DNA of 64,000 nucleotides from sequence record ON075799; one strand, given 5' to 3'. A model generated the notes under the pieces. That model worked only from the letters and a program-made list of their open reading frames with translations, did no database searches and was not told where the DNA came from. Shown piece after piece: positions 5,815-57,274 of this stretch. Positions within the stretch are counted from its first letter, which is position 1. The number at the start of each line of letters is the position of its first letter. The position numbers were made by a program, and so were the translations under genes. The stretch comes from Escherichia phage vB_EcoM_TH18.

Positions 5815-5893
5815 TGGTTGCGAGTATTGGAATCGAACCTGCAATCTTCAGGGTATGAACCTAACATGGTAAATCCATTTCCACCAATCTGCA
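5815..5893 (-). tRNA. degenerate tRNA-like element (anticodon-loop CAU; weak acceptor and T stems)
   Basis: Canonical T-loop GGTTCGATTCC, D stem and anticodon arm TTAGG-TTCATAC-CCTGA present, but T stem and acceptor have several mismatches. Confidence 0.3.
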
Positions 5894-6467: not shown

Positions 6468-6559
6468 TGGCGGTTCCTGAAGGATTCGAACCTTCGGTGG
6501 GGAGATTCATTCCCAACGGCTTAACAGGCCGTCACCATCGACCACTCGGTCAAAGAACC
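6468..6559 (-). tRNA. type II (long variable arm) tRNA with anticodon GUU; identity uncertain
   Basis: 92 nt; acceptor GGTTCTT/AGGAACC (one G-U), anticodon arm ACGGC-CTGTTAA-GCCGT, ~20 nt variable arm, T arm GAAGG-TTCGAAT-CCTTC, CCA encoded. Confidence 0.55.
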
Positions 6560-7333: not shown

Positions 7334-7410
7334 ACGAGAGTGAGGAATAGAACCTCTTAGTCACTGGTTTTGGAGGCCAGCCTTCACCCAGTGAAGTTAC
7401 GCTACTCTCA
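7334..7410 (-). tRNA. non-canonical tRNA-like element
   Basis: Good acceptor (TGAGAGT/ACTCTCG) and T-loop-like GGTTCTATTCC, but D and anticodon regions do not fold into standard arms; no encoded CCA. Confidence 0.3.
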
Positions 7411-7417
7411 TTAAAAA

Positions 7418-8407: not shown

Positions 8408-8483
8408 TGGTGGGAGTGGTAGGCTCTGCCCCTACGTCCTCTCGATTATCGGTCGAGCGATCTACTAACTGATCTACACTCCC
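8408..8483 (-). tRNA. tRNA-like cloverleaf with Ile-type anticodon GAU but non-canonical D and T loops and C at position 33
   Basis: All four stems perfectly paired, CCA encoded, but D loop AGTTAGTA lacks GG, T loop is GGCAGAG (no TTC), anticodon loop is CCGATAA. Confidence 0.5.
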
Positions 8484-8546
8484 AAACTGTACTGGCCCAA
8501 CAACCACGATTGGAGGGTATCGTCACACATCAAAGCCAGTACAGTT
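8484..8546. other. long perfect hairpin (13-bp stem, ~37-nt loop) between two tRNA genes
   Basis: aaactgtactggc (8484-8496) and gccagtacagttt (8534-8546) are exact reverse complements. Confidence 0.6.
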
Positions 8547-9305: not shown

Positions 9306-9505
9306 AAAATAAGAATGCTTTATAGTGTATGGTTACTCAACCTCACTCCAACTTCCACAGTTGGTGCTCTACGAGCATGACTACGTTTGAAATCAACGTT
9401 GCGCACCGATAGCTTTCTCACGCATTGTATGCCTCATTCCCAACAAATGCTGATCAGACATTTATATCGAATAATATAAGCTAATACACTATAAAACAAA
9501 CTTGT

Positions 9506-9602
9506 GGCTGGGTGATGGAATCGAACCACCTATGTATTCAACGGCTTCCCCGTCTATTTTCAGGATTATAAATCCTCGCCCTTGCCAAAGGGCTTACCCA
9601 GC
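9506..9602 (-). tRNA. over-long (97 nt) tRNA-like element, anticodon arm ambiguous
   Basis: Perfect acceptor (GCTGGGT/ACCCAGC), D arm GCCC-TTTGGCAA-GGGC, T arm GGTGG-TTCGATT-CCATC; central region has only a 4-bp stem with loop TTTATAA and ~30 extra nt; no encoded CCA. Confidence 0.35.
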
Positions 9603-9604
9603 AT

Positions 9605-9679
9605 TGGTGCTCGCAGCAGGTTTCGAACCTGCAACCCCCTGCTTACAAGGCAGGTGCTCTACCGTTGAGCTATACGAGC
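9605..9679 (-). tRNA. tRNA-Thr (anticodon UGU)
   Basis: Acceptor GCTCGTA/TGCGAGC, D arm GCTC/GAGC, anticodon arm CCTGC-CTTGTAA-GCAGG, T arm GCAGG-TTCGAAA-CCTGC, CCA encoded. Confidence 0.85.
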
Positions 9680-11408: not shown

Positions 11409-11485
11409 TTGGTGGCCCCTGCTGGACTTGAACCAGCGACCAAGCGATTATGAGTCACCTGCTCTATCCAACTGAGCTAAGGGGC
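11409..11485 (-). tRNA. tRNA-Met (anticodon CAU; initiator/elongator/Ile2 not distinguished)
   Basis: Acceptor GGCCCCT/AGGGGCC, D arm GCTC-AGTTGGATA-GAGC, anticodon loop CTCATAA, T arm GCTGG-TTCAAGT-CCAGC, CCA encoded. Confidence 0.8.
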
Positions 11486-11818
11486 CGAATCTCTTAATAT
11501 GAGATGATATTATCCTGTATGATCTACATTGTCAAGAGATATTTTAAAATTTTATACATCCCAGTTTTCTTCTTGATAACAACCTTCCCCGAATCCAACT
11601 TCTTTTTCAAAATCAATACCTTTTTTCATACATTCCTCACATTAACAGATATTGTTTTCAAACTCAAAACGTAAAATACGAACTCTGTCAATACACTGCT
11701 GTAATCTACAAAGCAACAACTCAACTTGTTTATGCGTCTCTTCAGTATACGTTTTGGTCATCTTGCTTTTCTCCGTGATCTTTTCATTGCAGCTTCTGCA
11801 CGTCTTTGTTTACGATTT

Positions 11819-12395: not shown

Positions 12396-14111
12396 TTAAA
12401 GCTGTGATAAGGCTCTTTGGCGAATTTCTTCAAGATCCTCATCCACAAGCAGCTTACCATTAACAAAAACTGTTCTAAGCTCGTTATCATGGTCAGATAC
12501 TTGGTTAATACCAAGATTATCTACCAGCTTCAACTCGCCATCATCACCACGAATAACTTTAACAAAACCTTTCGCAGATTTCTTCCCAAGATCAGTCTTA
12601 GGCTCTTTTACGACCATTACTTGTCTGCCATCAATCACAGCACCAGTAGCTTTTACAGCCATCCCAAGAGAATCACGGGTTGTATATTGCGTTGTATAAG
12701 ACCCTACACCAAACACAATGTTACTGGAAGCAAACCCTCGTTCTTCAAGGCGCTCAAAGATCTCTTTAGCACGGGAGATTGTGATAGAGTCTCCGTAGAT
12801 TAAACCAACATGGCTATCAAGAACTTTGTAACCCAAAGAGTTTACACTACCACCAAAGATTTCCCACAAGCATTGTACAGCACCCTTAACTTCCTCTTTT
12901 GTCAGATAATTTGTAAATTCATCACCTGTCAAAGATTTCCAATCTACGAGGTTGCCTTCCGAATCTCGCATCCATGAAGTGTCTCTGGACATCTCGTATA
13001 AAGTGACATATTTGCCATTTTTAAACAGCACAGCATCCATGTCACAGCACTGCCCCGTTGCCCATTCTTCCTGAGAGCACACGCGATAACCAGCAATGAT
13101 GTGCTCTGGGATCCCACTGTCAGGTCGGAAGACCAGCTTGCCATCACGAGACATAATCTCATCTTTCAGGATTTTTGCTGCCTGTGTAATGATTGCCCAA
13201 AAATCATAGCTGTCAGCGACGTATGAAGCATAACCTGATGGGAAAATCTCTGTCACATAACGCTTTAAGAACTCAACTTCAGCACGAAAACGTGCTTCAT
13301 CAAGCGGCATATCAGGATTTTCCTGCTGGATACGCTCAACAATAAAACCAATGTTCGTTGTCGCTACGCTATGCTCAGATGCGGGAATAGACCCAGCAAC
13401 AAAGCGACCTTTCATGTTGTAATAGCGATTTGCGTAAACAATCGCTGGAATTGTATCTGTGCCCATTGAGCTAATCAGTTGCCCAAATTCGCTCTGTGCT
13501 GCGTCATGTGTTCCAGCTTCACCACGGTATGCAAAACAATGGTTCTGGAAAGGAACATGATCGTTGTTATCACATGTTTTCTTTGCCCACAGTTCTGATA
13601 GTTTACGGTATTGCCAGAAAGTCGTTGCCGTGGTAATTGTCTTCCAAGTCTCCGATGAGATCACGCTCTCAAGGAAGTTCGGCAGCCAGTAAAAATCAGG
13701 ATGCGTGTTCTGAATCGTGAACATGGGAACCTGAACAGGAACAAGAGTTCCTTCAGGCAAAGCCCTAATTTCAATTGGGAGATAACCAAGGTCATGCAAT
13801 TTCTCAAAACCCCAAGTTTCAACAGCATCCTTCCCAATGCTCAAATCACAAATCTCTTTGTAATCCTGAATCGCCTTTTCTTTCGGTAAAGCGAAGAAAT
13901 TATTATTAAACATGTCGATCAGGAACCACTTGATAAATCCCTGAAGACCTGCAAACATCACACGATGGTCATCATCTGCAAAGTGTACAAAGTGTTTCAC
14001 ATTGCGTGGGGTCATGTTGTCTTGAACAAACTGTGAACGTCTATCGTACATCGAGATGTGACTTGGTTTATAAAAATCTGCGAACAGCAATGGACTTTCT
14101 TTGTGAAGCAT
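12396..14111 (-). CDS. nadV: nicotinamide phosphoribosyltransferase (NAMPT/NadV family)
   Basis: 571 aa; overall resemblance to the NAMPT family by eye (not searched); adjacent to a PRPP synthetase gene. Confidence 0.7.
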   Translation of the reverse strand: MLHKESPLLFADFYKPSHISMYDRRSQFVQDNMTPRNVKHFVHFADDDHRVMFAGLQGFIKWFLIDMFNNNFFALPKEKAIQDYKEICDLSIGKDAVETWGFEKLHDLGYLPIEIRALPEGTLVPVQVPMFTIQNTHPDFYWLPNFLESVISSETWKTITTATTFWQYRKLSELWAKKTCDNNDHVPFQNHCFAYRGEAGTHDAAQSEFGQLISSMGTDTIPAIVYANRYYNMKGRFVAGSIPASEHSVATTNIGFIVERIQQENPDMPLDEARFRAEVEFLKRYVTEIFPSGYASYVADSYDFWAIITQAAKILKDEIMSRDGKLVFRPDSGIPEHIIAGYRVCSQEEWATGQCCDMDAVLFKNGKYVTLYEMSRDTSWMRDSEGNLVDWKSLTGDEFTNYLTKEEVKGAVQCLWEIFGGSVNSLGYKVLDSHVGLIYGDSITISRAKEIFERLEERGFASSNIVFGVGSYTTQYTTRDSLGMAVKATGAVIDGRQVMVVKEPKTDLGKKSAKGFVKVIRGDDGELKLVDNLGINQVSDHDNELRTVFVNGKLLVDEDLEEIRQRALSQL

Positions 14112-14174
14112 GATCTCAACCCTCCAACCTAAAAGCGTATTTTTTCACTAAAACGTATCTTTGTCAAGATGTAA

Positions 14175-14984
14175 TTAAAAATTTTCTGTCCAGTCGTAGT
14201 ACGCATAGATTTCGTCAACGCCACCGTTGAGAATAAATTCTTTCCCACGAGAGAAAATCCCATGCGTGACATACAAGATAACACGTTTAGCACCAGCAGC
14301 TTTCAAGGCTTGAGCTAAGTTTGTAAACGTAAACCCACCATCGCAGATATCATCAACAATCAGGCACATCTTCCCATCGACATCACCAAACACTGTTGTG
14401 CCTGTGATTGCCCCTGTTCCCACATCACGGATTTTACCAGCTTCAACCACAGATAGTTCCAAGGCATCAGCTACCTTCTGGGTCTTCTTGCGTGCACCTG
14501 CATCTGGAGCAACCAACACAAGCGATTCGTCCGTAAGCAGATCAAAATCAAACTTCATGTTCAAGAACAATTCAGTCTGAGAACGAATTTTCACGTTATC
14601 AAGCAGTGCTGCGGATACGTCACTGTGTGGGTCATCGACGATGACTTTGTGGAAACCCAGCGAGTTAATCATTGTGGCAAAGACTTTCACCGACAGAGCT
14701 TCACCAGGGTTCATAACTCGGTCTTGTCGAGCATACGGGATGTACGGCAGGTGTAAAACCTTTTCCACACCAACATCCAAATTGCCAAGACGATTGACTG
14801 CATCAACAAGCAACGCAAGACACATCACATCTTGGGAGTGCTTAATGCGAGCGAAGATATCCACAAAACCAATCGAACCCTTAGGGATATAGTGCATATC
14901 GATCTTCACCTGCTCCTCACCACCACTGAAGGTAAAATGGTCAACTGGAACATGCAACTTGTTCAAACTCAAACGAATATTCAT
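14175..14984 (-). CDS. prs: ribose-phosphate pyrophosphokinase (PRPP synthetase)-like
   Basis: Motifs PYIPYARQDR, VAPDAGARKK and PRPP-binding LIVDDICDGGFT match the Prs family pattern. Confidence 0.7.
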   Translation of the reverse strand: MNIRLSLNKLHVPVDHFTFSGGEEQVKIDMHYIPKGSIGFVDIFARIKHSQDVMCLALLVDAVNRLGNLDVGVEKVLHLPYIPYARQDRVMNPGEALSVKVFATMINSLGFHKVIVDDPHSDVSAALLDNVKIRSQTELFLNMKFDFDLLTDESLVLVAPDAGARKKTQKVADALELSVVEAGKIRDVGTGAITGTTVFGDVDGKMCLIVDDICDGGFTFTNLAQALKAAGAKRVILYVTHGIFSRGKEFILNGGVDEIYAYYDWTENF

Positions 14985-56669: not shown

Positions 56670-57274
56670 TTCACCTCACCAAGACCAGTTACTGAAAAAA
56701 CGAACCACTTATGGATTGATTTGGCACACTCTTCCATCTTACCATCAATATTCTCGAAATCTCTTTCGTACCCTCGGATCCCGTCTAAACAGAGCCAATT
56801 ACGACTATCATTGCCCCAGTCGCAACCTTCTCTGTGAATACGTGCCAAGAAGAATTTACCGCCAGTTTCATAGGCATAGTTGGAAAGCTCAAGAATCTCT
56901 TCTTTAAAACCACCATCTGAAAAAACAACCAACCACGCTTCTTGATAATTTTTCTTTAAGTTCTCTACAGCAGCTTTGCCAAATGCATTCTCACCGAAAA
57001 TTGGTTTAATCACATTCTCTGAACAATGGATCATCCATTCTCGTGGTGAAACATGCTTTCCATCAATTTGCAGGTAAGGGCACGGTTTTTCTTTGTATCT
57101 ACGGTCATAAAGACTGTTCCATAAATCTTTTGAAACTCCAGAAGACCTAACAGCAACTTCAAAAAGCAATTTCTTCACTTCTTCGTGAAAAACACCAGAA
57201 ATATTCTCACACAAATAAGAGCAAATAGCGTCTTTTCCAGCACCAGGTGGTGCATTTAAAACAAGAATATGCAT
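56666..57274 (-). CDS. P-loop kinase (deoxynucleoside monophosphate kinase-like)
   Basis: N-terminal Walker A ILVLNAPPGAGKD; size and context fit a phage dNMP kinase. Confidence 0.55.
   Translation of the reverse strand: MHILVLNAPPGAGKDAICSYLCENISGVFHEEVKKLLFEVAVRSSGVSKDLWNSLYDRRYKEKPCPYLQIDGKHVSPREWMIHCSENVIKPIFGENAFGKAAVENLKKNYQEAWLVVFSDGGFKEEILELSNYAYETGGKFFLARIHREGCDWGNDSRNWLCLDGIRGYERDFENIDGKMEECAKSIHKWFVFSVTGLGEVK

Follow-up and report, generated by a model that had tools for sequence, protein, structure and literature searches.

A five-arm tRNA-like RNA conserved in the tRNA clusters of Vequintavirinae phages and possibly acting as a non-decoding tRNA mimic

Does a gene that is built like a tRNA at its acceptor end and elbow, and differently in its lower half, still serve translation? 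The question is raised by a 97-nucleotide (nt) gene on the minus strand of a 64,000-nt stretch of DNA from Escherichia phage vB_EcoM_TH18 (record ON075799), which we call the window. The window is Vequintavirinae phage DNA: over the 301 bases around the element, identity is 100% with Escherichia phages 18-1-2, 19-1-2 and 24-2-1 and 98.7% with Av-05 (genus Avunavirus). A minus-strand tRNA cluster, with 16 genes called by ARAGORN and one more by Rfam, occupies ~5.8–11.5 kb of the window, and the element lies within it, 2 nt past the CCA of tRNA-Thr(UGU). The upper half and the elbow of a tRNA are kept and the lower half is rebuilt, resulting in a five-arm molecule. Comparison with its relatives shows that the element is a structured, tRNA-derived RNA gene under purifying selection across the Vequintavirinae. 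Its parts are the following.

9506..9602, minus strand: whole tRNA-like RNA gene, 97 nt; 5' end at 9602, discriminator C at 9506, no encoded CCA
9596..9602, minus strand: acceptor 5' strand GCUGGGU, pairing with 9507-9513 through 7 Watson–Crick pairs
9507..9513, minus strand: acceptor 3' strand ACCCAGC, partner of GCUGGGU
9578..9593, minus strand: D arm GCCC-UUUGGCAA-GGGC; alternatively a stem of 6 base pairs (bp), GCCCUU/AAGGGC, with tetraloop UGGC
9562..9576, minus strand: anticodon-side arm AGGA-UUUAUAA-UCCU, 4 bp and a 7-nt loop; alternatively 6 bp and triloop UAU
9577 and 9561, minus strand: G residues bordering the anticodon-side arm, invariant in the alignment
9531..9560, minus strand: expanded 'variable' region, 30 nt, made up of AAAAUA, a hairpin and GAAUACAUA
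9555-9560, minus strand: conserved A-rich strand AAAAUA of the variable region
9540-9554, minus strand: extra hairpin GACGG-GGAAG-CCGUU of the variable region
9531-9539, minus strand: conserved strand GAAUACAUA of the variable region
9514..9530, minus strand: T arm GGUGG-UUCGAUU-CCAUC, 5-bp stem and 7-nt loop

A first-pass annotation, made from the letters of the window, had proposed a tRNA-like gene of exactly this extent. The sequence itself, a match to the tRNA model RF00005 at the same coordinates (9506-9602, minus strand; 33.1 bits, E=5.5e-4 in an 8-kb search, gathering score 29) and the minimum-free-energy structure all bear this out. The acceptor stem is perfect, as proposed, with 7/7 Watson–Crick pairs. 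Of the D and T arms, both taken to be standard, the T arm is so and the D arm is not: A8, U14 and U15 stand in place of U8, A14 and R15, and the arm is joined to the acceptor 5' strand by AA. RNAfold and RNAalifold both predict a 6-bp D stem with a 4-nt loop; the longer stem is unproven because its two added UU/AA pairs never vary, which leaves covariation silent. The aberrant centre was confirmed, its 4-bp stem closing the loop UUUAUAA and its 30-nt region enclosing a small hairpin, and the length does exceed that of class II tRNAs. No covariance model yielded the clean canonical fold against which the annotation had set its claim: the RF00005 alignment requires a 26-nt insertion and a 4-bp anticodon stem. 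The minimum-free-energy structure is the five-arm fold (z = -3.3 against shuffles), with the anticodon-side arm closed further to 6 bp and a UAU triloop.

Standard tools respond poorly to this architecture. ARAGORN makes no call for the element in the window, fails on nearly all other members of the family and returns 'tRNA-???' with a 4-base anticodon for the copy in phage rV5. Neither its transfer-messenger RNA search nor Rfam gives such a match in the window. No dedicated Rfam family matches the element; only RF00005 (window) or the selenocysteine tRNA (tRNA-Sec) model RF01852 (Hena1, PVP-SE1 and SalP219) responds. The family covariance model R1 scores the element at 100.2 bits as a single copy in the window, the next best match being tRNA-Cys at 23 bits. 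The discriminator of the window element is followed by CACAAG rather than CCA, which all 17 of the 17 canonical window tRNAs listed encode.

The evidence for selection on this structure comes from an alignment of 18 variants comprising 21 pairs and 378 stem positions. Standard pairs occupy 98.9% of the stem positions, a count that overstates independent events in a set of related sequences. More robust are the compensatory double changes, present in 10 of the 21 pairs, and their controls: sliding the partners by 1–3 columns left 0–1 double-change pairs, and the covariation score was reached by 0 of 500 shuffles. RNAalifold recovered the same helices independently. Every position of the acceptor stem is paired in all 18 variants, with double changes in three of its seven pairs and with G1-C72 and C2-G71 invariant. 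Covariation supports three of the four outer pairs of the D arm and three of the five pairs of the anticodon-side stem. The T arm is likewise paired at 100% of positions; U51-A63 alternates with C-G and G50·U64 with G-C, and the G·U pairs of the T stem, found in 11 variants, can be read on the minus strand only. At the elbow, the second G of the D loop and position 56 of the T loop form G19:C56 in 11 variants and U19:A56 in seven, with no mismatches. The seven U19:A56 variants may stem from one event; that event was still compensated and so points to preservation of an L-shaped elbow. The window and rV5 copies differ at 7 of 97 positions: four form two compensatory pairs (G4-C69 to A4-U69 in the acceptor stem, and ACGG/CCGU to ACGA/UCGU in the extra hairpin), two lie in loops and one is the discriminator, so that no helix is broken.

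The 97-nt unit is present in 163 phage records by blastn. Pattern scans, BLAST and metagenome matches together gave 23 distinct variants, from Vequintavirus, Avunavirus, Seunavirus, Mydovirus, Henunavirus, Raoultella phage Ro1 and metagenomic contigs, with one in a member of the Schitoviridae, Salmonella phage UTK0002 (Ithacavirus). This distribution (Vequintavirinae and one Schitoviridae phage) is a lower bound, and the metagenome and genome scan patterns were too permissive. Screening 270 scan loci from a loose pattern with model R1 gave at least five true members, each of them metagenomic and Vequintavirinae-like, with no bacterial genome among the matches listed. An origin from the host was rejected: blastn against 5,426 complete E. 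coli genomes gave no match with E≤10. In rV5-like phages, the blastn match is confined to query positions 3-98 (~94% identity) and the flanks cannot be aligned.

Homologues are annotated inconsistently, as nothing, as a 'hypothetical protein' coding sequence, as tRNA-Lys, as tRNA-OTHER or as tRNA-TERM/sup(tca); examples are JX181824.1 185-268, PP856721.1, MZ326168.1 and MN732867.1 50338-50445. A full-text search of the literature found no description of the tRNA-like RNA, and a survey of ~10,000 candidate structured RNAs in viruses treats tRNA-like candidates in general terms only.

Two modules vary on the conserved body. The anticodon-side arm measures 15–16 nt compared with 17 in a canonical tRNA. 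Copies from Seunavirus and Mydovirus have 5 bp and 6 nt; those of the window, rV5 and the Hena1 type have 4 bp and 7 nt. The nucleotide at position 33 may be U, A or C, and A37 alone is constant. The loops comprise UUUAUAA, UUUUUAA, CAUCAAA, AAUCAAG, CCAUCCAG, CCAGCCAG, CCCUCCAG, CCUUCCAG and CCCUCAAG. The first-pass annotation took the loop to read UAU; the triplet is there, but is not to be read as assigning a codon. It differs among relatives: the window and Av-05 have UAU, rV5-like phages UUU, most Seunavirus and Mydovirus UCC, 4MG GCC, and Hena1, UTK0002, L022 and NINP13076 UCA. It also switches between near-identical bodies, from UCC in KE22 to UCA in NINP13076 and from UCC in GAP31 to GCC in 4MG; in the same comparison of loops, L070 and L142 differ solely at position 33.

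The second module is the region between the anticodon-side and T arms, which spans 30–39 nt and in which two invariant strands, G(A/U)AAAA on the 5' side and AUACAUA on the 3' side, flank a hairpin; A44-46 are invariant in the alignment. The hairpin folds in nearly every variant, less cleanly in L025, from unrelated sequences. In GAP31, 4MG, BIS47, KPP-1, L070 and L142, which represent three genera, the 72-nt body is 99–100% identical and the extra arm 23–70%, and the arm type with the loop AACUAACAGUA is found on three different bodies. The extra hairpin behaves like a cassette.

Several ways of tying these parts together were rejected. Kissing between the anticodon-side and extra-arm loops is suggested by UCCA:UGGA in Seunavirus and GCCA:UGGC in 4MG, but L070, KPP-1, L025 and Ro1 have the same loop without UGGA, UGGAG lies inside the arm's own stem in KE22 and BIS47, and NINP13076 has changed UCC to UCA with no compensating change. 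A small intron is excluded in that no excision of ~21-25 nt yields a 5-bp stem, a 7-nt loop and a 4-5-nt variable loop. Pairing of the two conserved single strands is possible in Hena1 only (AUGU/ACAU) and is not conserved.

The element belongs among the tRNA-derived and tRNA-like RNAs of phages, and differs from each known group that we compared. With the class II tRNAs (Leu, Ser and Tyr) it shares a cloverleaf with a hairpin between the anticodon and T arms, and the best matches of model R1 outside the family are phage tRNA-Tyr genes with '...ACAUA' before the T stem (29 bits). Its 30-39-nt region, however, has 6-7 and 9-10 invariant unpaired nt flanking the hairpin; in addition, the anticodon arm is cut short, none of the triplets belongs to Leu, Ser or Tyr, and the length is 97 nt without CCA. 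The allo-tRNAs of Mukai et al. 2017 (PMC5389517) are set apart by an acceptor/T branch of 8/4 or 9/3 and by long anticodon stems; some are phage-encoded, and a role as regulatory non-coding RNAs has been suggested for them (PMC5389517). Like them, the element may have a tRNA-Sec-like D stem-loop, and it has a long extra arm and diverse 'anticodons'; unlike them, it has a 7/5 branch in 18 of 18 aligned variants and a short anticodon-side stem, and it occurs in enterobacterial lytic phages.

The species 1 and 2 RNAs of phage T4 (rnaC and rnaD) are also stable non-tRNA RNAs located in a phage tRNA cluster, directly past a tRNA, and rnaC ends in a tRNA-like T arm, CCGGG-UUCGAAU-CCCGG. They are 119-139 nt long and lack a full cloverleaf, and model R1 gives no match at either, its sole match in that locus being tRNA-Thr at 22 bits. 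These T4 RNAs are the nearest functional analogues of the element; we know of no function for them. YrlA, a bacterial Y-RNA-like molecule, is reportedly a non-decoding mimic of the tRNA elbow and of the D and T arms, and is said to be phage-encoded in some cases. The 5' and 3' ends of YrlA form a helix that binds Rsr (Ro), so that there is no free acceptor end, whereas the termini of the element form a normal acceptor stem with a discriminator, followed by CCA in most members. The open reading frames (ORFs) neighbouring the window element include no gene or domain of the Ro/TROVE or RtcB type.

What could such a molecule do? We tentatively favour a non-decoding tRNA mimic that acts through a tRNA-binding partner, a reading we rate somewhat short of probable and place first, with an unusual decoder second. 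A non-decoding role is favoured because the anticodon-side arm is short, position 33 is not always U and the triplet is unstable. Canonical tRNAs for the same codon coexist with the element in the window (tRNA-Ile2) and in PVP-SE1 (an annotated tRNA-Gly), though not in rV5. The window gene concerned, called as 'tRNA-Met(CAT)' at 11410-11486 on the minus strand, is 96% identical to an E. coli tRNA-Ile with a CAU anticodon (ileX type), and is almost certainly a tRNA-Ile2 that reads AUA after lysidine modification.

The mimic would be transcribed together with the phage tRNA operon, in which two features lie upstream of the element.

9605..9679, minus strand: tRNA-Thr(UGU), just upstream; called by ARAGORN, RF00005 73.6 bits
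9774..9801, minus strand: promoter-like site TTGAAA-16-TAAAAT upstream of tRNA-Thr; 10/12 in a sigma-70-like consensus scan, a consensus match only

The promoter-like site is a candidate start for a unit of tRNA-Thr, the element, a ~190-nt RNA, tRNA-Arg and tRNA-Cys. In most relatives, the element begins 1-5 nt past the CCA of another tRNA; rV5 is an exception, with a ~100-nt spacer after the preceding tRNA-Ser. On established tRNA biology, RNase P would release the 5' end at G9602, 2 nt past the CCA of tRNA-Thr, host exonucleases would trim the 3' end and the host CCA-adding enzyme would complete it. Most other members encode U73-CCA; post-transcriptional addition would be needed in the window and rV5 copies. 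After maturation the RNA would adopt an L-shaped fold in which the constant body could serve as a handle for processing, stability and recognition by a tRNA-binding protein, while specificity could come from the anticodon-side loop, which evolves fast, and from the swappable extra arm. The likeliest role would be that of a decoy or competitive ligand of a host factor that binds or attacks tRNA, such as a defence nuclease, a toxin or a modification enzyme; this is the most economical reading because the body is invariant and the modules are fast. It could alternatively be an adaptor for a phage protein.

Several observations weigh against a non-decoding mimic. The loops of the window and rV5 copies are formally normal, with 7 nt, U33 and A37, and the six canonical tRNAs of rV5 include none for Lys, so the rV5 copy may decode. 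A73 with UUU recalls what we take to be the E. coli Lys identity set, and U73 with NCC, G1-C72 and C2-G71 presumably recalls that of Gly. To an anticodon nuclease, a loop of 6 nt or with A33 would be a poor imitation of a true anticodon loop. No partner protein is apparent among the neighbouring ORFs, in which Pfam gives DUF7338, NAPRTase and PRPP synthetase and no confident match for the remainder. Finally, the 129-kb Escherichia phage V18 (KY683736.1, ~56779-56870) carries a deletion chimera in which the 5' two-thirds of tRNA-Tyr(GUA) are joined to the 3' third of the element; the acceptor strands are mismatched and both genes are inactivated. The element is therefore dispensable at least in culture.

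The principal rival is a bona fide, if unusual, elongator tRNA charged by a host synthetase, which would read AUA (Ile) in the window, AAA (Lys) in rV5, GGN (Gly) in Seunavirus and Mydovirus and UGA in Henunavirus. An RF00005 score above the gathering score, a UUUAUAA loop with U33, a central triplet and A37, the missing tRNA-Lys of rV5, the Lys-like and Gly-like combinations of discriminator and triplet, and the labels tRNA-Lys, tRNA-TERM and tRNA-OTHER given to homologues by other annotators are consistent with it, as are the 7-bp acceptor stem, 5-bp T stem, 7-nt T loop and G19:C56 elbow of a canonical tRNA, all backed by covariation. The element lacks, however, the combination of a 5-bp anticodon stem, a 7-nt loop and U33: either the stem has 4 bp or the loop 6 nt, and many members have A33 or C33. 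The anticodon is not conserved among its orthologues, and triplet shifts on near-identical bodies would lead to mischarging or miscoding; in phages with the standard code (code 11), the versions with UCA would act as opal suppressors. The window copy combines C73 with the lack of CCA, canonical tRNA-Ile2 and tRNA-Gly genes stand alongside the element, ~25 added nt with invariant single strands are unprecedented in decoders, and ARAGORN's failures extend to nearly the whole family. We consider an elongator unlikely. Far less likely still is a tRNA-Sec-type RNA or the relic of an opal suppressor, which the features of the members already largely refute. The long extra arm and the possible 6-bp D stem with a tetraloop, with G19:C56 kept, do resemble tRNA-Sec, and the CAUCAAA loop of Hena1, UTK0002 and L023 differs from the model consensus CUUCAAA at position 33 only. 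The tRNA-Sec model, a check the first-pass annotation had proposed, is the best Rfam match for Hena1 (39 bits) and PVP-SE1 (27 bits, as for SalP219), outscoring RF00005 in both, whereas RF00005 outscores it for the window copy; every score lies below the gathering score of 47. The acceptor/T branch is 7/5 rather than 8/5, A8 being unable to pair with the residue after the T stem, the anticodon stem has 4-5 bp rather than 6, and the alignment to the model flags non-standard pairs at stem ends. The discriminator is U, C or A, where we take G73 to be that of tRNA-Sec: the window copy has UAU with C73, and the UCA relatives have U73 with A33 or, in NINP13076, with C33 in a 6-nt loop.

Other rivals dispense with decoding as well. 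A 'punctuation mark' of the tRNA operon, which recruits RNase P and 3' processing and thereby separates or protects neighbours such as the ~190-nt RNA downstream, would suit the usual position directly 3' of another tRNA and, in many genomes, directly 5' of further conserved structured non-coding RNAs. RNase P, however, requires only an acceptor/T minihelix, which leaves the covariation of the D arm, anticodon-side arm and elbow and the invariant A-rich strands unexplained, and the rV5 element sits between ordinary tRNAs with no non-coding RNA downstream; we regard this as improbable. Slightly more doubtful is an aminoacylated carrier for a non-ribosomal reaction, modelled on the non-proteinogenic tRNA-Gly of peptidoglycan bridges and other transferases that depend on aminoacyl-tRNA. 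It would account for a conserved acceptor end and a dispensable anticodon arm; U73 together with the NCC-like loop resembles Gly identity, and the elbow is conserved, as are G1-C72, C2-G71, U73 and the encoded CCA, (nearly) invariant outside Vequintavirus and Avunavirus. Against it stand the C73 and missing CCA of the window copy and a loop triplet that varies; no aminoacyl-tRNA transferase of the Fem, GNAT or L/F-transferase type was seen near the cluster, and to our knowledge none is known in Vequintavirinae phages. A decaying tRNA pseudogene or a chance cloverleaf, the least credible of all, could draw on the aberrant centre, the absence of CCA from the window copy and the loss of the element in V18. 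It is refuted by the covariation, and sits badly with conservation across genera, with compensatory changes in place of helix-breaking substitutions and with flanks that have diverged past alignment around a body 99-100% identical across three genera.

Two pieces of context are leads towards a link with defence. Phage tRNAs are documented counter-defences (bioRxiv 10.1101/2023.03.15.532788), which we treat as a lead only. In rV5 (DQ832317.1 65706-67714), a metallophosphoesterase, ORF81 with a P-loop (GSGKS) and an RnlA-like RNA ligase are encoded ~4 kb from the tRNA cluster. ORF81 is read as a kinase from its P-loop motif, and the three genes form a possible RNA healing-and-sealing set, again a lead only. 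By tblastn, no homologue of the rV5 ligase, phosphoesterase or ORF81 is found in the 64-kb window. Just past the tRNA cluster, at 12396-14984 on the minus strand, lie genes for salvage of nicotinamide adenine dinucleotide (nicotinamide/nicotinate phosphoribosyltransferase and phosphoribosyl pyrophosphate (PRPP) synthetase).

The cluster contains further odd tRNAs. The first-pass annotation had pointed to similar oddities at 7334-7410 and 5815-5893; these turned out to be different objects, and neither scores with model R1. At 7334-7411 (minus strand) lies a divergent tRNA-Trp. Its anticodon is CCA, in the loop CUCCAAA; C31·A39 is a mismatch, the D stem CUUCAC/GUGAAG has 6 bp and closes a loop of 3 nt, the T stem has 4 bp, and the gene encodes no CCA. 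It is not among the ARAGORN calls, the tRNA-Sec model scores it below threshold (32 bits), and its homologue in PVP-SE1 is annotated as tRNA-Trp. The gene at 5815-5893 (minus strand) is called 'tRNA-Met(CAT)' by ARAGORN and scores 25.1 bits with RF00005, under the gathering score; pairing by hand gives two mismatches in the acceptor stem and a poorly paired T stem, and it may be a degenerate tRNA. The 92-nt tRNA at 6468-6559 (minus strand) combines a GUU anticodon, for Asn, with a body of class II type, in which the D stem has 3 bp, the variable arm is long and position 73 is G; PVP-SE1 (85 nt) and L025 (86 nt) likewise have long tRNA-Asn genes. The tRNA-Ile(GAU) at 8408-8486 (minus strand), missed by ARAGORN, is found by Rfam with 53.4 bits (match 8411-8483) and has the T loop GGCAGAG rather than UUCRANN.

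A second conserved structured RNA of ~190 nt lies at 9313-9501 (minus strand), between the element and tRNA-Arg, with a terminal stem of 13-19 bp; it has no Rfam match. Homologues lie 3' of the element in GAP31, SalP219, 4MG, PVP-SE1, L070 and L142, and RNAalifold on four sequences gives 56 pairs, 18 of them with compensatory double changes. Within the invariant hairpin loop CUGAUCA of this RNA, UGAUCA is self-complementary, and one of its helices, GCUC...GAGC, resembles a D stem. Outside the window, a third conserved structured region, also ~190 nt and 3' of the element, has the terminal stem CAUCUUAUGUACGGG...CCCGUACAUAAGAUG in PVP-SE1; it is found at L002 ~440-630 and in L011, L001, L021, L070, L142 and L127, that is, in several Seunavirus, Henunavirus, Mydovirus and Ro1-type genomes. 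Together, the element, the ~190-nt RNA and the third region fill an unannotated ~1-kb 'gap' in the tRNA cluster of PVP-SE1.

The Vequintavirinae, phages of E. coli, Salmonella and Klebsiella that include rV5, PVP-SE1, GAP31, the Klebsiella phages of Mydovirus and members in the BASEL collection, have been sequenced widely and are candidates for therapy and biocontrol. The element is unannotated in most of their records, and labels such as 'suppressor tRNA' or 'tRNA-Lys' distort assessments of codon usage and safety. As a non-decoding mimic, it would be a natural example of a tRNA fold retained for a purpose other than decoding, with an invariant body and two fast modules. The ~1-kb 'tRNA-free gap' is a testable reservoir of phage non-coding RNA function, which may relate to how phages cope with defences that target tRNA. 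A more specific proposal, which we think unlikely as it stands, is that the element is a modular arms-race effector retargeted through its loop and hairpin, for example as a decoy or inhibitor of tRNA-directed immune nucleases or toxins, or else a charged carrier for non-ribosomal aminoacyl transfer. If it were such an effector, the family would be the first RNA-only tRNA-mimic anti-defence family.

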